A stretch of 64,000 nucleotides of DNA, from the sequence record PQ351811; one strand, written 5' to 3'. The notes under the pieces are model-generated. The model saw only the letters and a list, made by a program, of their open reading frames with translations. It made no database searches and was not told the origin of the DNA. Shown here piece after piece: positions 2,295 to 40,110 of this stretch. The position numbers and the translations under genes were made by a program. This DNA is from Shigella phage SSG23. How positions within the stretch are numbered: position 1 is the stretch's first letter; the number at the start of each line of letters is the position of its first letter.

Positions 2295-2477
2295 ATGAAA
2301 AAGATTAATTGGTTAGCGAACATAGGCGCGGTATGCGCCTTTAACATCCTCGGATGGATAATGTTACATTTTGATGATCGCGTTTCAAAATGTGAAGGTG
2401 GATTGATTCTAGGATCTGCTAGTGTTTTCATTATGCTGTATGCAATTATAGTTGACTTAAACCGCGAGGATTGTTAA
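2295..2477 (+). CDS. small membrane protein
   Basis: Track ORF; hydrophobic; SD AAGG upstream. Confidence 0.5.
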   Translation: MKKINWLANIGAVCAFNILGWIMLHFDDRVSKCEGGLILGSASVFIMLYAIIVDLNREDC

Positions 2478-2478
2478 T

Positions 2479-2679
2479 ATGAAAATTAATAATAGTGCCA
2501 TCAGATTTTCGAGCGTATATGCTAGTTTCATTGCGCTGGTCTGTATGTTTGTTTTTATTCCTGTTGTACTTCTTGGATATTGTGATATTGAAGTAGCATT
2601 GATTGCTGGGATCTATATGTGGGTTGCGGTCTTTGTTCTTTCAATTGTAATGTGCAAGATTATTGACTATACTGATTAA
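2479..2679 (+). CDS. small membrane protein
   Basis: Track ORF; two hydrophobic segments. Confidence 0.5.
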   Translation: MKINNSAIRFSSVYASFIALVCMFVFIPVVLLGYCDIEVALIAGIYMWVAVFVLSIVMCKIIDYTD

Positions 2680-2697
2680 CTGTGTGAGGATTATATT

Positions 2698-3018
2698 ATG
2701 AGCAAACTGTTTGAAACTCCGCGCGAAATTCTGATTGATAAACTGAAAGAGCGTGGTTTTAAGATCAAAGATGCAACCAAATACAGCAGAATTGATGAAA
2801 TTAAGTTGCATTCTCTTGATGAACTGGTAGAATATGTTGCGGCAGTGGCTGATCCGCAGTTTGATGTTATTGTAGGTGACGTTGAATATCTCGATAATGT
2901 ATATTCATTCTTCACTTATGGTAAAATTGTGTCTGTGAAAATTTCATTCTGTGAAAATGTGGAGGTACTTGCTAGTGAACCAGAAGAACCAACTAACAAC
3001 GGTCCTACGGCAGCGTAA
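2698..3018 (+). CDS. hypothetical protein
   Basis: Track ORF preceded by GAGGATTATATTATG initiation cassette. Confidence 0.55.
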   Translation: MSKLFETPREILIDKLKERGFKIKDATKYSRIDEIKLHSLDELVEYVAAVADPQFDVIVGDVEYLDNVYSFFTYGKIVSVKISFCENVEVLASEPEEPTNNGPTAA

Positions 3019-3289
3019 CAAGGAAGACCGCCTGATTTATGCGCTGGCTGTTATCCTAGAAAAAGAATTACCGGATCTTGAGGTAGTCTTTACTGACAGA
3101 CCAGTAGGCCAACGTTACGGCGGATATGATAGCCTAGTTTATCCTTCATATAGCCTTGAAATGTGGGTAGAAGATTTTAAAAACCTGGCTGATACATCTA
3201 AACCGCTTTATCTATGGGATGTTGAGTATAATTGCGATCCTAACTGGCCTGGTATTAATGTTTATGCGTCTATGACTTTGAAGGTGTGA
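2951..3289 (+). CDS. hypothetical protein (start uncertain)
   Basis: Track ORF in +1 frame overlapping upstream ORF by 68 nt; no SD at annotated start; AAGGAAG at 3020-3026. Confidence 0.3.
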   Translation: MKMWRYLLVNQKNQLTTVLRQRNKEDRLIYALAVILEKELPDLEVVFTDRPVGQRYGGYDSLVYPSYSLEMWVEDFKNLADTSKPLYLWDVEYNCDPNWPGINVYASMTLKV

Positions 3290-3291
3290 TA

Positions 3292-3450
3292 ATGATTGAA
3301 CAAATGTTAACTGCAACGGTAATGGCTTTCTGTATGGTTGTTGTTATGATTGCAATGATCCCTAAAGAGAGAATGAGTCTTCTTGTCGCTGTCTGTGTGG
3401 GTGTTGTTTGCGGATGGTTTGGAATCGCTTTAGAACAAGCTCTGCGTTGA
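3292..3450 (+). CDS. small membrane protein (52 aa)
   Basis: ATG 2 nt after upstream stop; highly hydrophobic; below track cutoff. Confidence 0.4.
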   Translation: MIEQMLTATVMAFCMVVVMIAMIPKERMSLLVAVCVGVVCGWFGIALEQALR

Positions 3451-3511
3451 TTAACAAAGCGGGTAGGGGAATGTACTACCCGCACTAAATTAGCTAACTG
3501 GAGGGCTTTCT

Positions 3512-3700
3512 ATGGCGTTTTATCTATGGTTGATTATAGTATGCTTTGTGCTGGGGTTGTGCTTCTATACTGGCGTATTCTGTTTGATTGGCTGGATAAA
3601 CGGAGGATTCTCTAGTATCATTTTGCTTGCCGGATCAATCGCCTCGTTTCTGTTGATATGGCTTTTTTCTTATTTGTTTGGTGAATGGGATTTATTATGA
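3512..3700 (+). CDS. small membrane protein
   Basis: Track ORF; SD GGAGGG upstream; hydrophobic. Confidence 0.5.
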   Translation: MAFYLWLIIVCFVLGLCFYTGVFCLIGWINGGFSSIILLAGSIASFLLIWLFSYLFGEWDLL

Positions 3701-3876
3701 ACAAATATATGTTTTGGGCGATCCTTGCCTATGTTGTGATTGCGGTAGTCTGGGGACTCTGTGTTATTGTCGCTTCCCTGATCTGGTGGGAATCACTTGG
3801 CGTGGGTTGCTTGATTAGTGGTGCATCCTCTCTTATTATGGGTGTGATTGTTGGGTTTCTTGTGTCGGGGGATTGA
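3697..3876 (+). CDS. small membrane protein
   Basis: Track ORF 3685..3876; ATG 3697 in ATGA overlap with upstream stop; hydrophobic. Confidence 0.5.
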   Translation: MNKYMFWAILAYVVIAVVWGLCVIVASLIWWESLGVGCLISGASSLIMGVIVGFLVSGD

Positions 3877-3878
3877 CA

Positions 3879-4094
3879 ATGGTTTTCTTCGGTCTTATTA
3901 TAATGGTGCTTAATGTCATTTGTGGCGTTGCTATGTTAGCTATGGCCTTTACTGTTCCTATGTCTGTTGATAGCGCCGCATCCGTAGGCGTGTTGGGAAT
4001 TGTAAACCTGTTTACCGCCCTAGCATGTTGGATCACCGGACGAGATGAGGTAATGTATTACTTTTATAAACGTAAACAGAGAAAAGGAAAATAA
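3879..4094 (+). CDS. small membrane protein
   Basis: Track ORF 3873..4094 (TTG); first ATG at 3879; hydrophobic. Confidence 0.5.
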   Translation: MVFFGLIIMVLNVICGVAMLAMAFTVPMSVDSAASVGVLGIVNLFTALACWITGRDEVMYYFYKRKQRKGK

Positions 4095-4095
4095 T

Positions 4096-4287
4096 ATGAG
4101 ATTTGCATTTGGTTTTACCGTGATGTTGATTATTGCTCTGAGTATGTGTACCGGAATGCTTGTATTTGGTCTTGCAAACGGATTTAGCATTTATAATGAT
4201 CCGTGGGTTGATTGGGGGATGGTTGCTGTTAATGCGATCCTGATTGGTGCTAATACAAGAACTCTATGCAGGATCACAGGAATCTAA
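4096..4287 (+). CDS. small membrane protein
   Basis: Track ORF; SD AAAGGAAAA upstream; hydrophobic. Confidence 0.5.
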   Translation: MRFAFGFTVMLIIALSMCTGMLVFGLANGFSIYNDPWVDWGMVAVNAILIGANTRTLCRITGI

Positions 4288-4315
4288 ATATTATCACTCA
4301 CAAAGGGGGTGAATA

Positions 4316-4705
4316 ATGTTTAAATTATCTAAAAGAAGCAAAGATCGGCTTGTTGGCGTACATCCAGACCTGGTAAAAGTCGTTCATCGTGCATTAGAAC
4401 TGACTCCGGTCGATTTTGGTATTACGGAAGGTGTGCGTAGTCTAGAAACGCAAAAGAAATATGTTGCGGAAGGTAAATCTAAGACTATGAAATCTCGTCA
4501 TCTTCACGGTTTCGCGGTTGACGTTGTAGCGTATCCTAAAGATAAGGATACATGGAACATGAAATATTACCGCATGATCGCTGATGCATTTAAACAAGCT
4601 GGTCGAGAATTGGGTGTTCCTGTTGAATGGGGTGGAGATTGGACCAGTTTCAAAGATGGTCCTCATCTACAATTGCCACACAGCAAATACCCAGATCCAA
4701 AATAA
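4316..4705 (+). CDS. peptidase M15-type endolysin (L-alanyl-D-glutamate peptidase / VanY-like)
   Basis: SRHLHGFAVDV (SxHxxGxAxD zinc motif) and C-terminal DGPHLQL His; SD AAAGGGGGTG; sits where T4 has lysozyme e. Confidence 0.8.
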   Translation: MFKLSKRSKDRLVGVHPDLVKVVHRALELTPVDFGITEGVRSLETQKKYVAEGKSKTMKSRHLHGFAVDVVAYPKDKDTWNMKYYRMIADAFKQAGRELGVPVEWGGDWTSFKDGPHLQLPHSKYPDPK

Positions 4706-4767
4706 AATATTAACCATCAACGGGGAGACAATCTAAGGATCTCTCCCCGTTCACTGGAGACTTTACC

Positions 4768-5253
4768 ATGAATATTGATGTAAAATTAGAAAGTAAAGAT
4801 TTGATTTATGCTGCGTGTGTATCTGCCGTAAATGGCATCATAGAACGCCGTAAGCGACGCAATTTTGCTGATGACCTAGATTCCATAGTCTCAATCAATT
4901 TAGGCCGTCAGACAGGGCATACAGACGCTACAATCAAGTTATATGACCATTATACGCGAAAAGGCTATAGTGTCTTTATCGTTTCAACGACGCGGGAACA
5001 TGCCAAAACGATCCGAGATCGCGGTCGCGGTGAAAATGTCAACATTTCAAATGTAGATTGCACGTCGATCCGAACTTTCCTGAATCCGATCACTTGGCGA
5101 GGTCGTAGTCTTGACAAAACAATTTTTATCCTAGATACTACCATGCGCGGATTTACTGACAGCGTATTGCAGTTTTTAGAGTTAAATCGACTTAGTGTTG
5201 GGATGGGTAATGTAGAAGACCAACCTATTTTCATTGGCTTAGGTATCAACTAA
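4768..5253 (+). CDS. hypothetical protein
   Basis: Track ORF; SD GGAGA upstream. Confidence 0.55.
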   Translation: MNIDVKLESKDLIYAACVSAVNGIIERRKRRNFADDLDSIVSINLGRQTGHTDATIKLYDHYTRKGYSVFIVSTTREHAKTIRDRGRGENVNISNVDCTSIRTFLNPITWRGRSLDKTIFILDTTMRGFTDSVLQFLELNRLSVGMGNVEDQPIFIGLGIN

Positions 5254-5390
5254 TGAAAAATAAAGATAGCGTAGCTCGTCGATTCCGTGCTACAATCAAT
5301 AAGAATCGTAAAGTCCAACCTGATAAACTCTATGGGGTTTTGGTTGGAAAAGTTAATGACGAACGTCCTGATCTATAAAAGAGGTGAATT

Positions 5391-5807: not shown

Positions 5808-5817
5808 TTTTTCATCA

Positions 5818-5846
5818 AGCCAATCCGAAAAGGGTTGGCTTTTTCT
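5818..5846 (+). terminator. intrinsic terminator
   Basis: AGCCAATCC-GAAAA-GGGTTGGCT stem-loop followed by TTTTTC. Confidence 0.6.
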
Positions 5847-5893
5847 TTATAGTGTGATACGATGCAATCTCTTAATCAACTGAGGGTTTAATT

Positions 5894-7110: not shown

Positions 7111-7449
7111 ATGAGTGTTAAAGAAGTGTTTGTTTATACCGACTATGACGGGTGCGCCTATATCACCGCCGGAAAACTTTACCGATGTGAAATTATTCAT
7201 GGTACATTAGGTCGAATTATGTGCGATCCGGTTACAAAATTGTGGAAAAGCAATCCTAGTGAGCGAGAAACTCTTATTAACCTAGATCCAGACGGTTGTT
7301 CACATTTGGACTATAGAAAATGGCATATCGTGACACATGATGCTTATGGTATTCATCTTGCTACTAAAGAATTAACTATAGAGAAATTCAAGTTTAAAGA
7401 AATCCCGTTTGTATACTGGCTTCGCAATTTGTTCAAGAAAGGAGAATAA
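7111..7449 (+). CDS. small protein, tandem paralog 3
   Basis: Track ORF after promoter; GKLY....DPDGCSHLDYRKW resembles paralogs 1 and 2. Confidence 0.55.
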   Translation: MSVKEVFVYTDYDGCAYITAGKLYRCEIIHGTLGRIMCDPVTKLWKSNPSERETLINLDPDGCSHLDYRKWHIVTHDAYGIHLATKELTIEKFKFKEIPFVYWLRNLFKKGE

Positions 7450-7450
7450 A

Positions 7451-7873
7451 ATGGAAACAATTAATGTACATGTTCGTCGTAGCAAGCTGCGTCGATTCTT
7501 CGAAACTGAAATGCGCAAAACTAATGCACAGATCAAAGAAAAGTGCTTGAATGATGGTTACGGTGAGTATATTTTCATTCGCTTTAGTCCGCATATGATC
7601 GACCGTCTAACCGATCGTCATATCGATGAACATAAGACAATGGAACTATTCAATAAGGTAGAAACTCGTTTACCTGAGATCTTCAAGTTCTTGAAAATGG
7701 AAGACCGACCTAACCGACTAGAAATCACTGACGGTAACATGTGGATCGGGATGACAGTAGATCTAATCGAAGACGGTAAACCGTATTACGGGCTATGCTG
7801 CCGAATGATTATAGAGAATCCAAAGCGACTGGCGGGTAAAATGTCGGCGGTTGTTTTGAAAGTGGACCAATAA
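7451..7873 (+). CDS. regB: RegB-like site-specific endoribonuclease
   Basis: METINVHVRRSKLRRFFE..RLEITDGNMWIGMTV..CRMIIENPKRLAGK matches remembered T4 RegB; SD AAGGAG. Confidence 0.75.
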   Translation: METINVHVRRSKLRRFFETEMRKTNAQIKEKCLNDGYGEYIFIRFSPHMIDRLTDRHIDEHKTMELFNKVETRLPEIFKFLKMEDRPNRLEITDGNMWIGMTVDLIEDGKPYYGLCCRMIIENPKRLAGKMSAVVLKVDQ

Positions 7874-10668: not shown

Positions 10669-10695
10669 GAGTTAATCATAAATAAAGCCCCAGAT

Positions 10696-10703
10696 TATAA
10701 ATA
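10696..10703 (+). promoter_or_regulatory. T4-late-type promoter motif TATAAATA
   Basis: Exact TATAAATA 34 nt upstream of rI-like ORF, inside loop of CCCCAGATT/AATCTGGGG inverted repeat. Confidence 0.5.
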
Positions 10704-10736
10704 TAACTGAATATTTTCAATCTGGGGGAATGACTT

Positions 10737-11039
10737 ATGTCATTTATTCGTAAAACTCTAACAGCGGCAATATGCTTGACTGCGGTCGGAAGTGTCAGTG
10801 CTGATCAATATGATCCAACTGGTGACTTTACTGATTATTTCGACGGTGCAATGATAGTATATGTAAACAAAATATCTCCTTCCATTGAAACCAGCCAGAA
10901 ATTTCATGCCCATATTATGAAGATGTATGCTCGTAGTAAATGTATGGATTCTAAGCAGTGTTTTATTATGGGGGAATATGCCGCAAAACAATTTGTTATG
11001 TTGTATAATGTGGAGAATCGAGAACATGAAATTCAGTGA
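10737..11039 (+). CDS. rI: RI-like periplasmic antiholin
   Basis: Signal/anchor sequence; C-terminal Y..S.C.DS.QC...GEYAAKQF resembles remembered T4 RI; adjacent to tk as in T4. Confidence 0.6.
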   Translation: MSFIRKTLTAAICLTAVGSVSADQYDPTGDFTDYFDGAMIVYVNKISPSIETSQKFHAHIMKMYARSKCMDSKQCFIMGEYAAKQFVMLYNVENREHEIQ

Positions 11040-34271: not shown

Positions 34272-35297
34272 ATGAAAATTTTGCTTTTGGGTGATCTGCA
34301 TACTGGTATCGGTGGCGATGATCCGTGGGTGCATGAGTATATTTTAGACACGATCAAGAAAGCGGTTGATTATTCTAAAGAAAATGGTATTAAGACATGG
34401 ATTCAAACAGGGGATTGGTTTGATTGCCGCAAGGCGATAACTCATGAAACCATGAAGTTTAACCGTACTAAGGTCATCCCATTACTGGAAGAGGCTGGAA
34501 TTACTTGTTATATCACGGTCGGGAATCATGATATGTTTAAACGAAACAAGATCCAGCCTAACGCACCGCGTGAAGTGTTAAGCCAGTATGATTGCATTAA
34601 GGTCATCGATAAGCCGGAAACAGTTACCTTTGATGGTGTATCGTTTGATCTGTTCCCGTGGTTTTGTGATGATAATAAATCAGAGGTTTTAGAGTTTATT
34701 CAAAATTCATTCAGCGAATATTGTGTAGGCCATTGGGAATTGTCTGGTTACTATTTCTATAAAGGTCTAAAATCCGAAGGTTATAGCGCGGACTTCCTCA
34801 AGAAATACCGTGAAGTGTTTTCCGGTCACTTTCATACTATCAGTGATGGCGGTAACGTAACGTATATTGGCACACCATACACACTAACGGCGGGTGACGA
34901 AAACGATCCGCGTGGTTTTTGGGTATTCGATACCGATACACACAAAAAAGAGTTTATCCAGAATGATAAAACATATCATGTGCGTATCACTTACCCGTCA
35001 GATGATAAAATCGACGTAGAACGCTATAAGGGGCTTAGTGTGCGTCTTATCGCAACGGTCGCTGATAATGGGTTAACTAAGTTAGAAAGCGCGTTAGAAG
35101 CCGTTGTGCATAAGCTAAAAGTGGTCCATAAGCTGGAGAGTAGCGCATCACAGGAAACAGGTGTTATTGAAGTTAAAAGCACTATTCAGATGGTCTATGA
35201 ATATCTGGAAGAACAAAACCTAGAACCGGAAGAACTTGCGGCAGTTAAGCGCATCTCTGATGAACTTTTAGCCGAAGTAAATAGCGCAAAAAGTTAG
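34272..35297 (+). CDS. 47: recombination endonuclease subunit gp47 (Mre11/SbcD-like)
   Basis: Phosphoesterase motifs LLLGDLHTG, GDWFD, GNHD, GHWE, GHFH; close to remembered T4 gp47. Confidence 0.9.
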   Translation: MKILLLGDLHTGIGGDDPWVHEYILDTIKKAVDYSKENGIKTWIQTGDWFDCRKAITHETMKFNRTKVIPLLEEAGITCYITVGNHDMFKRNKIQPNAPREVLSQYDCIKVIDKPETVTFDGVSFDLFPWFCDDNKSEVLEFIQNSFSEYCVGHWELSGYYFYKGLKSEGYSADFLKKYREVFSGHFHTISDGGNVTYIGTPYTLTAGDENDPRGFWVFDTDTHKKEFIQNDKTYHVRITYPSDDKIDVERYKGLSVRLIATVADNGLTKLESALEAVVHKLKVVHKLESSASQETGVIEVKSTIQMVYEYLEEQNLEPEELAAVKRISDELLAEVNSAKS

Positions 35298-35326
35298 TTG
35301 ACGCGGGGAGAAATCCCCGTTATACT
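35298..35326 (+). promoter_or_regulatory. sigma70-like early promoter
   Basis: TTGACG then spacer with CGGGGA-GAAA-TCCCCG hairpin then TATACT. Confidence 0.6.
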
Positions 35327-35350
35327 CTCTAAAAATTGATGGAGGTTATT

Positions 35351-35602
35351 ATGATTACTGATGCACTGAAAGAATTTAACGCAAGTTTAGAGAAGTTCAC
35401 TAAGATCCGAGTTTTTGAGGTTGTTCGGAATGGTCAACATATGCTATCCTTCCGTTCTAACTACGGGATGTGGACACATGACGAAATCCCGTTTGATCGT
35501 GATAATATCACTAGACTGGAACTAGCAACCATTGTATCCCGTAAGATTGCTGATATTACCCAGAATGTTATTGCGCGTGGGTCTATGGAGTCTGTACGAT
35601 GA
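35351..35602 (+). CDS. hypothetical protein
   Basis: Track ORF 35336..35602, ATG 35351 after GGAGGTT SD. Confidence 0.5.
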   Translation: MITDALKEFNASLEKFTKIRVFEVVRNGQHMLSFRSNYGMWTHDEIPFDRDNITRLELATIVSRKIADITQNVIARGSMESVR

Positions 35603-35916
35603 AAACACTTGCACAAAAAGTAATGGAATTTAATGCAGCGTTGCCTATGTTCGCTCGACGTAAGGGGATCTCCGTTGATGTATGGTATTCCAAAGAGCAT
35701 GAAGAAGTTCGGATGATGCTCGAAAAGCGACTCACTGACACTACCGTTAAGTGTAAGATTCGTTCTATTCCTCGCGAGGAAATAGAATTTGATGAAAGCT
35801 ATTACTTTACGCTGCGTCATGTGCTGAAACAAGCAATGGATGAACTTTTAGAAGACCTGAAACAATATGAGATTGAAGGGGGAACATATTATGAATATGA
35901 CTATGGTCGAGGCTGA
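35599..35916 (+). CDS. hypothetical protein
   Basis: Track ORF; ATGA overlap. Confidence 0.5.
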   Translation: MKTLAQKVMEFNAALPMFARRKGISVDVWYSKEHEEVRMMLEKRLTDTTVKCKIRSIPREEIEFDESYYFTLRHVLKQAMDELLEDLKQYEIEGGTYYEYDYGRG

Positions 35917-36463
35917 TTCTGATTCGCTGGTAATGGAACATTTTATTGAATTGGTACACACATACACAATAAAACAATCATATCACAAGAATCCGATCTA
36001 TGGCTATCTGAAAGCGCGTATTGCTAAAATGTGGGGTCAGCCAGTGGTTAAGATGTGGTATGATGACGGTTATCGTCGTTACCTTAAAGTTATTCATCCA
36101 CAGGATTTGATGGTAACTATGGACATTGGCGACTTTGTAAAAGACAAAGTAGAATCCATTATTAAGAGTGTGGTTGGTGAATATAATCCGATTGTATATG
36201 GTGCTTTCGTCCAGTGGATACAATCCAGCAAGTATTATTTTCCGAATACTCCATTGACGCTAACAGGTTGGATCTCTGTCATGCATAGCGGTGTATTCCT
36301 GGAAGCGTCAGAGACAATGTACAAGGGATATATTCTCCCGCATCGACTGGTGAAATGTGATCACCGCTTGACTGTAGGTGAATTTCGCGATATTCTGGAA
36401 CAGCAAGCGGAAGACCTGCAAGGTGAAATTGAAGAATTTTTAGAGGAACATAAACTAAAATGA
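35891..36463 (+). CDS. hypothetical protein
   Basis: Track ORF 35867..36463, ATG 35891 after AGGGGG SD. Confidence 0.5.
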   Translation: MNMTMVEADSDSLVMEHFIELVHTYTIKQSYHKNPIYGYLKARIAKMWGQPVVKMWYDDGYRRYLKVIHPQDLMVTMDIGDFVKDKVESIIKSVVGEYNPIVYGAFVQWIQSSKYYFPNTPLTLTGWISVMHSGVFLEASETMYKGYILPHRLVKCDHRLTVGEFRDILEQQAEDLQGEIEEFLEEHKLK

Positions 36464-36723
36464 TTCTATCGATGACCTACCTTAGACATAGGGTTATAGA
36501 AGGTCTTCGCGAATATCTGGCATTGAATAAAGGGATTTACATTGATCCCTTTATGACATATGATCCGGCGACACTGGATTATGTGGTCATGTTGCCAGAT
36601 CGCAGAGACACACTAGTTAAAGTGAAGGCGGCAAGTGTTTACAACATTGATGAAGATGTGTTAGCATTTAATATTATGGAATGTGTGATCGCGGAGTGGA
36701 TTAATGGCAAAGTTAAATTTTAA
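36460..36723 (+). CDS. hypothetical protein
   Basis: Track ORF; ATGA overlap. Confidence 0.5.
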   Translation: MILSMTYLRHRVIEGLREYLALNKGIYIDPFMTYDPATLDYVVMLPDRRDTLVKVKAASVYNIDEDVLAFNIMECVIAEWINGKVKF

Positions 36724-38386
36724 AACCTTGCGCTATCAGAATATAATGAGCGTAGGTGCTGAACCTGTAGAGATTCAGCTAGACGGATTCAAAAAGACAC
36801 TAATCACTGGTGTTAACGGTGCTGGTAAATCAACAATGATCGAGGCGCTTTGCTTTGTATTGTTTGGTAAACCGTTTCGTAGTATCAAGAAAGGCCAATT
36901 GATTAACAGCGTCAACAAAAAGAAACTGTTAGTCGAAGTCTGGTTTGAACTGGACGGGAAAGAATTTTATATTAAACGTGGTCAAAAGCCGGAAGTATTC
37001 GAAGTGCATCGCGACGGTCAAAAGATCGACGAGAGCGCGAGCACCAAAGACTTTCAGGAATATTTTGAAGGTATCATAGGCATGAACCTAGCCAGCTTTA
37101 AGCAGATTGTTGTTTTAGGCACTGCTGGTTATGTTCCGTTTATGAGTCTTCCGGCAGCGGGTCGCCGTAAGCTGGTCGAGGATTTGCTTGATATTGCCAC
37201 ATTAGGAGAAATGGACAAGCTGAATAAAGCGTATGTGCGCGAGATTACCCAGAATATCCAAATGCAGGAAATGAAAGCTAATCACGTTCAGCAACAAATC
37301 AACACTCATAAAAAGTACATAGAAGACGCTAGCAAGGCGAGTGCCGAGAATCTCCAGCGTTTACAGAATATGTATGATAAAGAGGTAGAATCGGCTAAAG
37401 CATTTAAAGCCGAAGAAACGCGCTTGACCGATGAGCTATTGGCTGTTGTTATGCCGGAAGATCCCAGCGCGGCATTGGCTAAAATTAATACGGCTATCGC
37501 ACAGATTGGTGCACAGATCCAGAACTTTGACCGTGTTATCCATATGCACGAGAAAGGCGGGGTTTGTCCTACGTGTACACAACCGATCATTCAGGGTAAT
37601 GATCATGCTGTACGCGAACAAAAAGCACAAGCAGAACATAAGCTGTCTCTGATTGACGAGAAACGCGTAGAATACGCAGAGAAAGCCAATTCTTTCCAGA
37701 CAGCACAAACTAAGGTCTTGGAAATTAAACGCGCTATAGAGTCACAGAGAGCGAATTTAACGGCATCTGTAGGTCGGGCTAAACAGATCCAGAAAGCAAT
37801 TCAGGAATTACAAAAAGAAAGGGTTGACAATTCCGAAGAACTTGCTAAACTGGAGCACGAACTGGTAGAGATTACCAATGAAAAATCAAAACTAGTTCTT
37901 GAAAAATATCATCGTGGATTTGTAACAGAAATGTTGAAGGATTCCGGTGTTAAGGCGTCTATCGTCAAGAAATATATTCCATATTTCAATGATCGAATTG
38001 CTTATTATCTGGAGATCATGGAAGCGGATTATATCTTTACGCTAGATGAAGAGTTTAACGAAACAATCAAATCACGGGGGCGTGAATCGTTTTCGTATAC
38101 ATCATTCAGTCAAGGCGAAAAAGCACGTATTGATCTTGCGATGCTCTTTACATGGCGTGATGTTGCTGGTAAAGTATCTGGTACTAATATCTCTTTGTTG
38201 GTACTCGATGAAATTTATGATGGGGCTACTGACGTTCAAGGCGTAAAAGCACTTGATTCCATCATTGACAAGTTAGATGATAACGTGTATATTATCAGCC
38301 ATCGTGACCATAACCCTGATGATTTTAGCCGTCATCTCAAGATGGTTAAACGTGGGCGATTCACTGAAATGAATGTTAACATTTGA
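36704..38386 (+). CDS. 46: recombination endonuclease subunit gp46 (Rad50/SbcC-like ATPase)
   Basis: Walker A GVNGAGKST, coiled-coil with CPTC zinc hook, signature FSQGEKARIDLA, Walker B LVLDE. Confidence 0.92.
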   Translation: MAKLNFKTLRYQNIMSVGAEPVEIQLDGFKKTLITGVNGAGKSTMIEALCFVLFGKPFRSIKKGQLINSVNKKKLLVEVWFELDGKEFYIKRGQKPEVFEVHRDGQKIDESASTKDFQEYFEGIIGMNLASFKQIVVLGTAGYVPFMSLPAAGRRKLVEDLLDIATLGEMDKLNKAYVREITQNIQMQEMKANHVQQQINTHKKYIEDASKASAENLQRLQNMYDKEVESAKAFKAEETRLTDELLAVVMPEDPSAALAKINTAIAQIGAQIQNFDRVIHMHEKGGVCPTCTQPIIQGNDHAVREQKAQAEHKLSLIDEKRVEYAEKANSFQTAQTKVLEIKRAIESQRANLTASVGRAKQIQKAIQELQKERVDNSEELAKLEHELVEITNEKSKLVLEKYHRGFVTEMLKDSGVKASIVKKYIPYFNDRIAYYLEIMEADYIFTLDEEFNETIKSRGRESFSYTSFSQGEKARIDLAMLFTWRDVAGKVSGTNISLLVLDEIYDGATDVQGVKALDSIIDKLDDNVYIISHRDHNPDDFSRHLKMVKRGRFTEMNVNI

Positions 38387-38603
38387 CAGAGTAACGCAGC
38401 CGGAGTTAGAATTGTATACATTAATCAATCTATATTCCGGTGAAGAATATGTAGTTAGTATGGGGGATATGAAAAACAGCATATACAGCGATGCAGACAT
38501 AACAAAAATGTTGTCTTGTCGTCATCATGAGTTTATGCTGGTCCCCAACTTTGATAAACTTGATTACCCTGATGCTGGGGTTGCAACAAACTTTAGAACG
38601 TGA
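38373..38603 (+). CDS. hypothetical protein (start uncertain)
   Basis: Track ORF overlapping gene 46 end; alternative internal ATG after GGGGG. Confidence 0.3.
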   Translation: MLTFDRVTQPELELYTLINLYSGEEYVVSMGDMKNSIYSDADITKMLSCRHHEFMLVPNFDKLDYPDAGVATNFRT

Positions 38604-38633
38604 TATACTGATTTTATTTTGGAGATTAATATT

Positions 38634-39011
38634 ATGACTACTTCCGCAAACCTGGCTAAAATTACCGTAGCAGACATTCAGAACAAGAAAACCAGTCTCG
38701 AATTTGACCGAGCAATGAACAAGATCCGTAAAGCGTGGGTACTTCAAATGCCGGAAAGCGAGAAAGCTAAAATGAAGGTTATCCCACAGCAAGCACGCTT
38801 TGAACTATACGCGCATATTGATGATATGGTGCAAAAAGAATGGATCGCGGCAATGCGCAAGTATTACGATGATTCAATTGCTAAAGGCGCTAAAACTATT
38901 CGAGGTAAAGATATTCTCGAAAAGGGTTATCAGATTGACACTGATGAACTGCTGATTGAAGCCGCTAGCGCAGTAGTAACTCGTCTAATCGCAATTGCTG
39001 ATGGGAAGTGA
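38634..39011 (+). CDS. rpbA: RNA polymerase-binding protein RpbA-like
   Basis: Track ORF 38619..39011, ATG 38634 after GGAGATTAATATTATG; position between 46 and 45 as T4 rpbA. Confidence 0.55.
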   Translation: MTTSANLAKITVADIQNKKTSLEFDRAMNKIRKAWVLQMPESEKAKMKVIPQQARFELYAHIDDMVQKEWIAAMRKYYDDSIAKGAKTIRGKDILEKGYQIDTDELLIEAASAVVTRLIAIADGK

Positions 39012-39015
39012 TAGA

Positions 39016-39393
39016 ATGAAACGTATGAGCCTAAAAGAACAATTAATGTTTATCGAACTTGACTATAAACTATTCCCGATACCGTTTGATTATGTCAAAC
39101 GTGGCAGTGTGGTTAATTTTGATATTGGAACCGATAGCAACATTTGGCATTTTGTTGTTGATGAGTTTGTTGATAATGTGATTCGTCGTAAACTTGCTTT
39201 TGAACCTTGCGGTGATCTGGTATATCTCGAAGGCAAGAAGACCGCAAAGAACCCTGTTACTGTCTATGCTCTGCAACAATACTTGACAGCATATATTGGA
39301 TTCAGATATACTCATACTATTGATGAGAAAGCTGCGGAAAACTTCCAAAACAAAATGCTCAAGATTCGTAACGAACACGAAGTAAACCCGTAA
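39016..39393 (+). CDS. hypothetical protein
   Basis: Track ORF 38995..39393, ATG 39016 after GGAAGTGATAGAATG. Confidence 0.5.
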   Translation: MKRMSLKEQLMFIELDYKLFPIPFDYVKRGSVVNFDIGTDSNIWHFVVDEFVDNVIRRKLAFEPCGDLVYLEGKKTAKNPVTVYALQQYLTAYIGFRYTHTIDEKAAENFQNKMLKIRNEHEVNP

Positions 39394-39423
39394 TTAATTG
39401 ATTAACATGATAAAGGTGATTTG

Positions 39424-40110
39424 ATGAAACTGACTAAAGAAACTATTGCTACTCTGAAAAACTTTTCCGCTATTAACCCAGGTATCATCCTGAAAAAAGG
39501 AAATGTGCTGATCACCAAAAACATGACAAACGTTGTATATGGTGAAGCGACTCTGAATCAAGAACTGGAACACGAAATTGGGATCTATGATCTTAACTCT
39601 TTCCTGGGTATTCTGAATCTGGTAGGCGATGAAGCAGATATTACGGTTGATAACCGCACTGGAAACATTCGTGTGTCTAACGATCGTCTGAAAATTAACT
39701 ATCCTGGTGCTAGTGCTGCCGCTATCGTATCACCGAAAGGCCGAGTTACTCCACCTGCAAGCGATGTAGATTACGAACTGAGCAACGACGATCTGAAACA
39801 GCTTATGAAAATGAGCAATCAGCTTAAAGTGGACCGCCTTGAATTTCTACCGATTGATGGTCGTCTGATGATCAAAGGCTGGGAAGAGATTGACAAAAAC
39901 AATCCTAATGAGATGTTTTGTCTTGACATGGGCGAATATACCGGAACCGCCGACTTCCATTTCTTTATTCGTAAAGACAACATGAAACTGGTTGCTACTG
40001 ACTTCGGCGATTACAAACTGAGCTTCACTCGCCGTAAGGCTGTATGGCTGGCAAGTGAAACCGTGTCTTACATGATCGCGTGTGACCTTGACTCCAGCTA
40101 CACCGACTAA
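39424..40110 (+). CDS. 45: sliding clamp gp45
   Basis: MKLTKETIATLKNFSAINPGIILKKG... matches remembered T4 gp45 N-terminus; 228 aa; SD AAAGGTGA. Confidence 0.9.
   Translation: MKLTKETIATLKNFSAINPGIILKKGNVLITKNMTNVVYGEATLNQELEHEIGIYDLNSFLGILNLVGDEADITVDNRTGNIRVSNDRLKINYPGASAAAIVSPKGRVTPPASDVDYELSNDDLKQLMKMSNQLKVDRLEFLPIDGRLMIKGWEEIDKNNPNEMFCLDMGEYTGTADFHFFIRKDNMKLVATDFGDYKLSFTRRKAVWLASETVSYMIACDLDSSYTD

Follow-up and report, generated by a model that had tools for sequence, protein, structure and literature searches.

The window (the whole stretch of DNA analysed, 64,000 nucleotides from Shigella phage SSG23, sequence record PQ351811) belongs to a genome assigned to Krischvirus (RB49-like). 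Five consecutive small ORFs, here called O1 to O5, lie directly 5' of the endolysin gene and in the same orientation:

3292-3450, + strand: O1 (RB49p107), 52 aa; ORF with a Shine-Dalgarno (SD) sequence
3512-3700, + strand: O2 (RB49p106), 62 aa; SD CTGGAGGG, containing GGAG
3697-3876, + strand: O3 (RB49p105), 59 aa, or 63 aa if the upstream ATG at 3685 is used
3879-4094, + strand: O4 (RB49p104), 71 aa, or 73 aa if the TTG at 3873 is used
4096-4287, + strand: O5 (RB49p103), 63 aa
4316-4705, + strand: endolysin, a zinc M15 L-alanyl-D-glutamate peptidase of 129 aa, orthologue of EndoRB49

The best starts were those used in the RB49, Makalu and JSE annotations. A first-pass annotation of the window had described five small hydrophobic ORFs directly 5' of an M15 peptidase, tiled or overlapping and of 52-73 aa; their presence and their tiling were confirmed, and the best starts gave sizes of 52, 62, 59, 71 and 63 aa. 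Junctions are tight (TGAtaATG between g2975 and O1, TGAcaATG between O3 and O4, TAAtATG between O4 and O5, and an ATGA overlap that places the ATG of O3 over the stop codon of O2), and an SD sequence precedes every one of the five. Across 21 krischvirus loci, dN/dS was 0.19, 0.52, 0.23, 0.09 and 0.22 for O1 to O5, respectively, and 0.22 for the endolysin of the same loci. Variation in O1, O3, O4 and O5 fell chiefly at third codon positions, O3 to O5 were uninterrupted in all 20 GenBank loci, and the order, lengths and specific motifs of the ORFs were kept in relatives at 63-90% amino-acid identity. O1 to O5 are genuine genes under purifying selection: hydrophobic, clustered, genus-restricted and partly dispensable. 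The dN/dS values of 0.09-0.23 in all but O2, the third-position variation, the intact O3 to O5, the retained order and motifs and the combination of an SD for each ORF with coupled stop/start junctions all argue against reading the ORFs as non-functional, be it as chance frames in T-rich DNA or as decaying remnants. This reading is very improbable, even though constraint on O2 is relaxed, O2 has been lost repeatedly, and several annotation pipelines have passed over O2 or O3.

All five products are hydrophobic (GRAVY 0.94-1.77), and a 19-residue Kyte-Doolittle scan gave two transmembrane (TM)-like segments each in O1 to O4; O5 showed a strong segment and a weaker one. TM calls were made from hydropathy and AlphaFold models rather than with a dedicated topology predictor; the scan and the AlphaFold hairpins of O4 and O5 agree with the earlier description of one or two predicted TM helices per ORF. 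We infer that O1 to O5 are two-helix inner-membrane mini-proteins, with membrane insertion and topology as predicted by these profiles and models. O1 (TM segments 5-23 and 29-47, GRAVY 1.46) has a short basic loop (PKERM) between its helices and belongs to phrog_16035, to which PHROG assigns no function; of all genes measured, it showed the highest synonymous diversity (pS 0.22), and its sequences group into about three classes of identity (83-84%, 90-93% and 98-100%). The most hydrophobic and least constrained of the five is O2 (TM segments 8-26 and 33-51, GRAVY 1.77), from which Lys and Arg are absent. Hydropathy predicts two TM helices in O3. A dual-start (lambda S-like) antiholin signature was considered for O3 and rejected: the ATG at 3685 adds only the uncharged residues MGFI, and its SD spacing is poor. 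O4, the most conserved, was modelled with helices at 2-25 and 30-69 (pLDDT 78) and combines two TM helices with a basic C-terminal tail GRDEVMYYFYKRKQRKGK; neither TM2 nor the tail varies, even among relatives at 80% identity. The tail (KRKQRKGK) is highly charged, in contrast to those of O1, O2, O3 and O5, which carry little or no charge, but charged C-terminal tails are also present in two small membrane ORFs distant from the endolysin (A2 and A4, below), and the feature is generic. The O5 model, of low confidence (pLDDT 66), is a helical hairpin (helices 2-30 and 36-61) with a conserved aromatic loop, NGFSIYN-PWVDWG.

Judging from the searches made, homologues of O1 to O5 are restricted to krischvirus-like phages. 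With the small ORFs as queries, Pfam, PHROGs, NCBIfam and PADLOC returned only their own families or sub-threshold hydrophobic noise, and all PHROG families of O1 to O5 are without assigned function. When 5.8 billion proteins were searched through a word index with O4 and O5 as queries, all matches were krischvirus-like relatives at >=80% identity (for O5, on krischvirus-like contigs only), and an HMM of the O4 family recovered that family alone from 1.84 billion representative proteins. Among 50,697 phage records, distant-mode blastn gave matches to 58 krischviruses only. At 79 unrelated M15-endolysin loci, tblastn with all small ORFs gave no match and there was no common holin-like neighbour, and comparison of the small ORFs with T4 e.2, e.3, e.4, trna.4, vs.5, RI and Imm gave no similarity. 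Foldseek comparison of the O4 model with viral structures gave a single significant match, the Phi1 orthologue; the remaining matches were generic helical hairpins, none with a holin annotation. A literature search returned no paper on O1 to O5 and no krischvirus transcriptome or proteome.

Further small membrane ORFs lie upstream:

5-115, 112-333, 333-515 and 512-730, + strand: A1 to A4, small membrane ORFs directly 3' of dmd
2295-2477, + strand: B1, two-TM ORF of the same island (hydropathy)
2479-2679, + strand: B2, two-TM ORF of the same island (hydropathy)

The four ORFs at 5-730, mentioned in the first-pass annotation, are real and hydrophobic, and a fifth such ORF starts just before the window. 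dN/dS was 0.25 for A3 and 0.13 for A4; A1 to A4 each form a separate PHROG of unassigned function, and B2 was found in only 3 of 20 GenBank loci. We called ORFs over the whole genome ourselves, with ATG as the sole start codon and a hydropathy cut-off of our own. Of the 19 small TM ORFs among the 269 ORFs obtained, 12 fell within a single 4.5-kb stretch from dmd to the endolysin, and it is striking that two thirds of the small membrane ORFs of a genome should share one such island. The run of five had a permutation p of 0.0002, and 12 small TM ORFs per 22-gene window were reached in none of 20,000 permutations; the clustering is non-random. O1 to O5 form the downstream end of this island, which is specific to Krischvirus and comprises 12 genes for small membrane proteins; the seven others sit 1.6-4.3 kb from the endolysin. 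The island occupies the hyperplastic (accessory) region from 57B/dmd to the endolysin. Its neighbours are of the accessory or counter-defence kind, 57B with the Pfam Acb1 family and the adjoining Dmd. All-against-all BLASTP and hhalign revealed no significant paralogy within the island; the best pair, A2-O4, aligned at the C-terminal tails (hhalign probability 12%), and a common origin among island ORFs is possible.

Not all of these genes are retained in nature. O1 is frameshifted in pEJ01, and at least three phages carry a damaged or deleted O2 (a frameshift in ECD7, a 5' deletion in PHB13, loss of most of the gene in ELT4), by which O2 is, at the sequence level, dispensable. In a metagenomic lineage (L118), B2 to O3 are deleted and B1 is fused to O4, leaving a locus without O1 to O3 and without the first helix of O4; the C-terminal half of O4 and O5 stay beside the endolysin even there.

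The identity of the endolysin is clear. It matches Pfam PF13539 (Peptidase_M15_4; E 4.4e-12, 46.8 bits, cut-off 25), phrog_465 (endolysin; 1e-68) and PDB entries 23ri and 8q2g (E 1e-82 to 1e-87), and its translation contains the zinc-ligand motif S60-x-H62-x-x-G65-x-A67-x-D69 plus a distal H117. The gene order 1-57A-57B...lys-vs.8-vs.6...regB-vs.1-vs-tk.4-tk-rI parallels T4 57B...e...vs.8, which puts the peptidase at the position of T4 gene e. The initial assignment of a VanY/M15-type L-Ala-D-Glu peptidase with an SxHxxGxAxD motif at that position is upheld by family, motif and synteny alike. The zinc-ligand motif and a conserved W109 are common to this enzyme and the M15C L-alanoyl-D-glutamate peptidases EndoRB49 and EndoT5, and there is no material difference from EndoRB49 beyond a single residue. 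L-Ala-D-Glu cleavage by EndoRB49 has been demonstrated (PMC8140593) and its biochemistry published (PMC10487532, PMC8140593); this part of the locus is already known, EndoRB49 having been purified and assayed and structures solved. The N-terminus of the window enzyme, MFKLSKRSKDRLVGVHPD, is hydrophilic, and the hydropathy scan detected no TM-like or SAR segment.

Regulatory features around O1 to O5 and the endolysin, together with the rI gene further downstream, were as follows:

1889-1917, + strand: near-consensus early sigma-70 promoter (TTGACA-17-CATAAT, 11/12 match), predicted start of the unit
3459-3483, + strand: stem between O1 and O2, conserved 8 bp (GCGGGTAG/CTACCCGC), variable loop, no U-tract
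4283-4290, + strand: candidate late promoter of the endolysin, TCTAAATA, overlapping the O5 stop codon
4285-4322, + strand: endolysin leader hairpin, pairing the SD (GGGGGTGA) and AUG with upstream sequence
4719-4751, + strand: hairpin 3' of the endolysin, before the vs.8 SD; conserved 10-bp stem, variable loop
5817-5841, + strand: intrinsic terminator 3' of vs.6, 10-bp stem followed by a T-run, predicted end of the unit
10737-11039, + strand: rI homologue (T4-type antiholin), phrog_1246 'lysis inhibition' (2.7e-25)

A promoter is annotated in GEC-3S at the position homologous to 1889-1917, and two further near-consensus sigma-70 promoters, at 933 and 1202, likewise correspond to annotated promoters of that phage; early promoters of the RB49 type come close to a perfect sigma-70 sequence (PMC4122927). 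The terminator at 5817-5841 is also annotated in GEC-3S, G2494 and Makalu_002, and another terminator is located at 879-900. With these promoter and terminator motifs as the basis, O1 to O5 would be transcribed early from sigma-70-type promoters, in a unit extending from about 1889 to 5817-5841, and the proteins would enter the host inner membrane within the first minutes of infection. Subdivision of this unit is conceivable at an internal promoter-like site (3873-3901) and at the hairpin that follows O1. In an alignment of 27 loci the stem of this hairpin is conserved and its loop free to vary; RNA 3440-3500 folds at -18.5 kcal/mol (z -2.76), and the annotation of G2494 lists the stem as a putative terminator. 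A PeSL mobile cassette was also considered for this hairpin and found unsupported, no sigma-70 promoter adjoining it. The annotations of G5211 and G2248 mark the hairpin 3' of the endolysin (RNA 4706-4767, -21 kcal/mol, z -3.78) as a terminator.

The endolysin appears to have a late promoter of its own, placed inside a hairpin predicted to hide its ribosome-binding site (RBS). An octamer identical to TCTAAATA is listed in NC_005066 (142181-142188) as a late promoter of RB49, and the octamer 5' of the distal tail-fibre gene is identical as well; TCTAAATA and the endolysin leader are invariant in 27 loci. T4-type late promoters span positions -13 to -6 (PMC1524935). No TATAAATA was present between 730 and 10696, and no late motif was found 5' of O1 to O5. 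The folding energy is -13.3 kcal/mol for read-through RNA (4270-4335; z -3.84; none of 200 shuffles equally stable) and -3.3 kcal/mol for RNA from 4296 (z -0.35); a transcript from about 4296 has no 5' arm, and the hairpin is therefore not expected in the predicted late RNA. In early read-through RNA the endolysin SD and AUG would be buried in the hairpin, and transcripts from the late promoter within the 5' arm would be unable to form it, as for T4 gene e, making the endolysin a late gene regulated apart from O1 to O5. The same architecture of late promoter and RBS-masking hairpin is found 5' of orthologous endolysins in four other genera and, in the window, 5' of rI, where the late-promoter motif is TATAAATA (10696-10703) and a leader hairpin follows the same pattern.

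Translational control of T4 gene e was reportedly described by McPheeters et al. in 1986. In T4, SD and AUG are sequestered in early read-through RNA and the late promoter in the 5' arm makes late transcripts translatable; both are predicted for the window endolysin. The two loci differ in enzyme, a GH24 lysozyme against a non-homologous M15 peptidase, and in promoter octamer, here TCTAAATA and not TATAAATA. A review of gene e translational control (PMC3014915) lists RB49, phi1 and RB43 as being without an apparent gene e and leaves them aside. Gene-e-style control has seemingly been kept across five genera despite the exchange of a lysozyme for an unrelated peptidase, which suggests that the conserved unit is a regulatory slot, not the enzyme.

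A rival reading follows the lambdoid lysis cassette: one or more of O1 to O5, with O4 as the best candidate, would act as holin, antiholin or pinholin and control release or activation of the adjacent M15 endolysin. Such partners had been proposed in the first-pass annotation. The five ORFs are co-oriented with the endolysin and directly 5' of it. O4 has the generic outline of class II holins and pinholins (phage 21 S68; about 70 aa, two TMDs, upstream of the endolysin) at 71 aa, down to a highly basic tail like the basic cytoplasmic tail of class II holins, and its C-terminal half and O5 remain by the endolysin in the L118 deletion lineage. Weak Pfam holin matches were seen for O4 (Phage_holin_3_5, 14.4 bits, cut-off 27) and O1 (Phage_holin_5_2, 13.2 bits, cut-off 29.2), but these scores are far below the cut-offs; no curated Pfam holin family matched O1 to O5 above threshold, and NCBIfam gave nothing. 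The comparison with the t holin locus of the complete genome that had been suggested yielded a canonical T holin gene at genome positions 105133-105786, 65 kb away and 98.6% identical to RB49 T (RB49 T against Pfam Phage_holin_T, 4.5e-61). Spanins are encoded in the same genome, and rI has its orthologue outside O1 to O5, T4 RI scoring <2 bits against HMMs of O1 to O5. By established lysis biology, pinholins serve SAR endolysins, and a soluble endolysin is not releasable by a pinholin; neither a SAR nor a TM segment is present in the window endolysin, and a pinholin partner is therefore excluded. O4 itself differs from pinholins in a strongly hydrophobic TM1 (2.69) that is not SAR-like. Expression of O1 to O5 is predicted to be early, not late as for class II holins and pinholins, with the endolysin under its own late-promoter motif and RBS-masking hairpin. 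Orthologous M15 endolysins of Gualtarvirus, Bragavirus, Pseudotevenvirus and Slopekvirus have no TM ORFs among the three genes immediately upstream, natural phages have lost O1 and O2 singly and B2 to O3 en bloc, and the seven similar TM ORFs of the island stand well off the endolysin. The proposal of lysis partners is accordingly disfavoured, and we regard it as improbable; O4 and O5 may have some lysis-related role, conceivable because O4 looks like a class II holin and both are constantly beside the endolysin. Lysis would instead be carried out by the T holin, RI antiholin and spanins encoded elsewhere, O1 to O5 being unneeded for release of the endolysin.

O1 to O5 are most likely, as far as sequence can indicate, early accessory inner-membrane proteins, the lysis machinery being elsewhere. 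The explanation as a whole, that they are coupled early two-helix membrane genes of a Krischvirus island, not lysis partners, with the endolysin regulated separately and late, is on balance probable. Their function can only be inferred, and they are possibly Imm-like exclusion or counter-defence factors. In the Imm-like case, which by analogy we consider a tentative possibility, at least one ORF would alter the inner membrane so as to block superinfecting phage DNA, or would handle envelope-level competition. The idea of membrane-acting immunity factors, also raised in the earlier annotation, is plausible and in line with the lack of homologues of Imm and Sp: tblastn of T4 Imm and Sp against the complete SFHK24 genome gave no match (Imm E >= 1.9), while Dmd was detected there at 2e-13. 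The missing detectable Imm and Sp do not show that O1 to O5 replace them.

The role that would rank second after the Imm-like one is the neutralising of membrane-based host defences. Here the island proteins would form a counter-defence battery against membrane-embedded host effectors or sensors (abortive-infection pores and transmembrane effectors of signalling systems are envisaged), extending Acb1 (57B) and Dmd. The location in an accessory region next to these two genes is in keeping with this, as are the genus-restricted ORFans with allelic mosaicism (exemplified by the pS and identity classes of O1), the gene content that varies among close relatives and the predicted early expression. 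On the other hand, no resemblance to known anti-defence proteins was seen, and no PADLOC, Pfam or NCBIfam match was obtained, PADLOC covering defence and not anti-defence proteins, and dN/dS well under 1 gives no sign of diversifying selection; we hold both the battery and the targets envisaged to be rather doubtful. Similarly speculative is the reading of the 12-gene island as the krischvirus replacement of the missing Imm/Sp system of superinfection exclusion, or as a comparable early module for envelope remodelling, with O2 to O5 as subunits of one hetero-oligomeric inner-membrane complex; equally so is the suggestion that O4 would form its core through the invariant TM2 and basic tail. If true, krischviruses would possess a type of multi-protein device for exclusion or counter-defence that has so far not been described in T4-like phages.

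Returning to O1 to O5 as early accessory inner-membrane proteins, they are typical of a very large class, the early accessory ORFans of phages. Krischviruses are a genus widely isolated for therapy and without recognisable Imm or Sp; a role of the ORFs in exclusion or in disarming defences would bear on krischvirus behaviour in cocktails and on host range, and would bring new families into a class with few members, the small membrane effectors of phages.

Among known systems, the best functional analogy for O1 to O5 is T4 Imm, a non-essential product of an accessory-region gene. Imm is a small early inner-membrane protein (83 aa, two hydrophobic stretches in its sequence) with two helices, features in which O1 to O5 are alike by prediction only, and it has a charged C-terminal tail. 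There is no sequence similarity between them (tblastn E > 1; in hmmsearch, the O- and A-family models scored T4 Imm at <2 bits), and T4 imm is a single gene between genes 42 and 43, whereas O1 to O5 lie elsewhere, in an array of 5 (12 with the island). By position, the closest counterparts are four uncharacterised T4 membrane ORFs (e.2, e.3, e.4 and trna.4), which lie in the same 57B-endolysin interval as the island, each with one or two TM-like segments by hydropathy and three of the four consecutive. They share no homology with the island ORFs; at 61-130 aa the T4 proteins are larger, there are fewer of them, and the krischvirus island is much denser.

Five small hydrophobic ORFs (O1-O5) directly upstream of the M15 endolysin gene most likely encode early, accessory, partly dispensable and genus-specific inner-membrane mini-proteins. 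The region (window 3000-5300) was 100% identical to Shigella phage SFHK24 (PQ351812.1), in whose complete genome the window covers positions 35342-99341, and matched 57 other records at 90-97% identity, all Krischvirus (RB49, Phi1, JSE, GEC-3S and others). In RB49 the counterparts of O1-O5 are RB49p107 to RB49p103, and that of the peptidase is RB49p102.

Small ORFs and endolysin gene (window coordinates)
3292-3450, + strand, O1, 52 aa
3512-3700, + strand, O2, 62 aa
3697-3876, + strand, O3, 59 aa
3879-4094, + strand, O4, 71 aa
4096-4287, + strand, O5, 63 aa
4316-4705, + strand, endolysin, 129 aa

Stop and start codons of O1-O5 overlapped or were 1-2 nt apart, except at the O1/O2 spacer (61 nt), which contains a conserved hairpin. 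The first-pass annotation had described these five ORFs, and four more at 5-730, as small membrane ORFs, and this was borne out: O1-O5 were very hydrophobic (GRAVY 0.94-1.77) with two TM-like segments each by hydropathy (the second of O5 weaker), O4 and O5 were modelled by AlphaFold as helical hairpins (pLDDT 78 and 66, respectively), and the ORFs at 5-730 were hydrophobic too. In the complete genome, our own calls (269 ORFs, all starting with ATG; own hydropathy cut-off) gave 19 small ORFs carrying a strong TM segment, of which 12 fell within genome positions 35152-39628 (window -190 to 4287), including two runs of five. This clustering was beyond chance (permutation p = 0.0002 for a run of five; 12 TM ORFs per 22-gene window in 0 of 20,000 permutations), and O1-O5 thus constitute the downstream end of an island of small membrane-protein genes.

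Comparative sequence data indicated that O1-O5 are real genes. Pooled Nei-Gojobori dN/dS across the window and 20 krischvirus loci was 0.19, 0.52, 0.23, 0.09 and 0.22 for O1 to O5, respectively, compared with 0.22 for the endolysin and 0.03-0.40 for flanking genes. O3, O4 and O5 were intact in 20 of 20 krischvirus loci, and metagenomic relatives at 63-90% amino-acid identity carried all five ORFs in the same order and at nearly the same lengths. Constraint was sequence-specific: in O4, TM2 and the tail (GIVNLFTALACWITGRDEVMYYFYKRKQRKGK), and in O5 the loop (NGFSIYN-PWVDWG), were essentially invariant. O2 carries a frameshift in ECD7 and a 5' deletion in PHB13, and most of it is missing from ELT4; O1 was frameshifted in pEJ01. 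In one lineage (three contigs of 50-200 kb), a 1.5-kb deletion from window 2456 to 3964 has removed B2 (a two-TM ORF, 2479-2679), O1-O3, two soluble ORFs and O4's first helix, and has fused B1 (a two-TM ORF, 2295-2477) in frame to the second half of O4, with a shared AxVDxxxS stretch spanning the junction. The fusion lies at L118:2930-3219 on a gut-metagenome krischvirus contig of 164,976 bp, the same protein being found on three long contigs.

B2 was present in only 3 of 20 GenBank loci (Makalu_002, MIZ4 and JSE), most others having two different ORFs of ~65 aa at its position, the sort of allelic replacement reported from the hyperplastic regions of RB49 and phi1. Skers (L090, 3044-3465) carries a second partial copy of the junction between O1 and the preceding gene, g2975 (a local duplication near O1/O2), and JK32 (L087, 3121-3816) has ~265 extra bases around O1/O2. 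Homing-endonuclease-type genes (AP2/HNH, NUMOD4/HNH) occupied two intergenic sites, lys/vs.8 (window ~4706-4767) and vs.6/nrdC.11 (~5810-5890), in a subset of krischviruses (loci L087, L089, L094, L097, L099, L101, L104, L106 and L118), and were missing from the window phage. Orthologues of O4 were labelled 'tail length tape-measure protein' in PHB13 and ELT4, and in hit tables also in AV108, KMB43, ELT3 and JEP8; on a 71-aa membrane protein this label is almost certainly an annotation artefact of hydrophobic composition.

From the positions of sigma-70 promoters and terminators, and the near-perfect sigma-70 form of RB49-type early promoters (PMC4122927), O1-O5 are predicted to lie within an early transcription unit.

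Predicted promoters and terminators (window coordinates)
879-900, strong terminator
933-961, near-consensus sigma-70 promoter
1202-1231, near-consensus sigma-70 promoter
1889-1917, near-consensus sigma-70 promoter
5817-5841, strong terminator

These predictions agree in position with annotated features of GEC-3S and other records. A further candidate promoter at the O3/O4 junction (3873-3901; near-consensus sigma-70, TTGACA-17-TATTAT, 11/12) overlaps coding sequence and is kept in core krischviruses, being weaker in divergent ones. GGAG, at which the RegB endoribonuclease cleaves T4 early mRNAs, occurs in the Shine-Dalgarno (SD) sequences of O2 (3501-3505), vs.8 (4754-4758) and, in most relatives, O4, which would fit early-gene status; the endolysin SD lacks it, and regB lies at about 7409-7873.

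The endolysin is an already known enzyme, differing by one residue from the RB49 endolysin EndoRB49 (NP_891673), for which structures have been solved (PDB 23ri, 8q2g) and L-Ala-D-Glu cleavage demonstrated (PMC8140593). That an M15 peptidase replaces T4 lysozyme e, as first proposed, was upheld by a match above cut-off to Pfam Peptidase_M15_4, the motif S60-x-H62-x-x-G65-x-A67-x-D69 with H117 (read from the sequence), and a gene order (1, 57A, 57B ... lys, vs.8, vs.6 ... regB, vs.1, vs, tk.4, tk, rI) matching that of T4 (57B ... e ... vs.8 ... tk, rI), so that the peptidase occupies the e slot.

The suggestion that some of the small ORFs are holin, antiholin or pinholin-like partners of the peptidase was not supported, and a lysis-partner role for O1-O5 is unlikely. 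A canonical T holin is encoded in the same genome (218 aa, genome 105133-105786; 98.6% identity to RB49 T, itself a Pfam Phage_holin_T match at 4.5e-61); with an rI homologue in the window (10737-11039; phrog_1246, 2.7e-25) and Rz-like spanins annotated at genome 131001-131773, the genome has genes for all three roles, holin, antiholin and spanin. Holin-family matches of the ORFs reached 13-14 bits, below cut-offs of 27-29, and natural losses of O1, O2 and O3 also speak against such a role. By established lysis biology, pinholins only depolarise the membrane, activating SAR endolysins, and cannot release a soluble enzyme; the N-terminus of this endolysin has no hydrophobic stretch, which rules out a pinholin partner. 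In Gualtarvirus, Bragavirus, Pseudotevenvirus and Slopekvirus, an M15 endolysin gene occupies the equivalent syntenic position, directly before a vs.8-like gene; none of its three nearest upstream genes showed a TM-like segment, and the closest TM-containing ORFs were 1.2-1.9 kb further upstream. O1-O5-like products were encoded at 0 of 79 other M15-endolysin loci. O4 and O5 are always found beside the endolysin, and a residual lysis-related role for these two is quite improbable.

Each of O1-O5 formed a PHROG of its own, of unknown function, with no match in Pfam or NCBIfam at curated cut-offs or in PADLOC. Searches with O4 and O5 against 5.8 billion proteins returned krischvirus-like phages only, an O4-family HMM against 1.84 billion representatives its own family only, and Foldseek generic hairpins only. 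No paralogy among the ORFs was detectable, the best pair being O4 and A2 (112-333, one of the ORFs at 5-730). The last 28 residues of these two are similar (ALVTWMIRDCYGMYKFEKTRPKWGK vs ALACWITGRDEVMYYFYKRKQRKGK), and A3, from the same group as A2, carries a related AWMCDEY; this likeness hints at an old common origin, at an hhalign probability of only 12%.

Counter-defence genes (57B, of the Acb1 family, and the adjacent Dmd) flank the hyperplastic region that contains O1-O5. The same interval of T4 holds the uncharacterised membrane ORFs e.2-e.4 and trna.4; O1-O5 resembled neither these nor RI or Imm. Homologues of T4 Imm and Sp were not detected in the complete genome, in which Dmd was easily found, and T4 Imm is also small with two hydrophobic stretches. 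These features tentatively favour envelope-level exclusion or competition as the process in which O1-O5 might act, a possible mechanism rather than a probable one; counter-defence against membrane-based systems comes next and is doubtful. The other reading of the first-pass annotation, membrane-acting immunity factors, is thus still a possible one. O1-O5 probably belong to the known class of phage early small membrane accessory proteins.

Regulation of the endolysin is predicted, computationally throughout, to be separate from that of O1-O5. The octamer TCTAAATA (4283-4290), which overlaps the stop codon of O5, has exactly the sequence of an annotated late RB49 promoter in NC_005066 and recurs 43 nt before the distal tail-fibre gene; exact TATAAATA occurred in the window only at 722 and 10696. 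TCTAAATA forms part of the 5' arm of a hairpin in which the endolysin SD and AUG are base-paired, and the leader was invariant in 27 of 27 loci. Read-through RNA across the endolysin start folded at -13.3 kcal/mol (z -3.84, 0/200 shuffles), and RNA from the predicted +1 (4296) at -3.3 kcal/mol (z -0.35). The same arrangement was predicted before the orthologous endolysins of Gualtarvirus, Bragavirus, Pseudotevenvirus and Slopekvirus, and before the window rI. In these four genera (L108-L111, 70 nt before each endolysin ATG, itself at locus position 3001), as in Krischvirus (window 4283-4322), a hairpin masks the SD and AUG, and its 5' arm contains or precedes a TAAATA-type late-promoter motif. 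In the rI leader (10680-10740), TATAAATA at 10696-10703 lies between arms CCCCAGATT and AATCTGGGG, the 3' arm overlapping the rI SD by the same logic as in the endolysin leader. T4 gene e has been shown to be controlled by a late promoter within an SD/AUG-masking hairpin (PMC3014915); RB49, phi1 and RB43 were entered in that 2010 review as lacking gene e and were not examined there. Control in the style of T4 gene e appears to have been kept in Krischvirus and the four other genera despite replacement of the lysozyme by an M15 peptidase unrelated to it.
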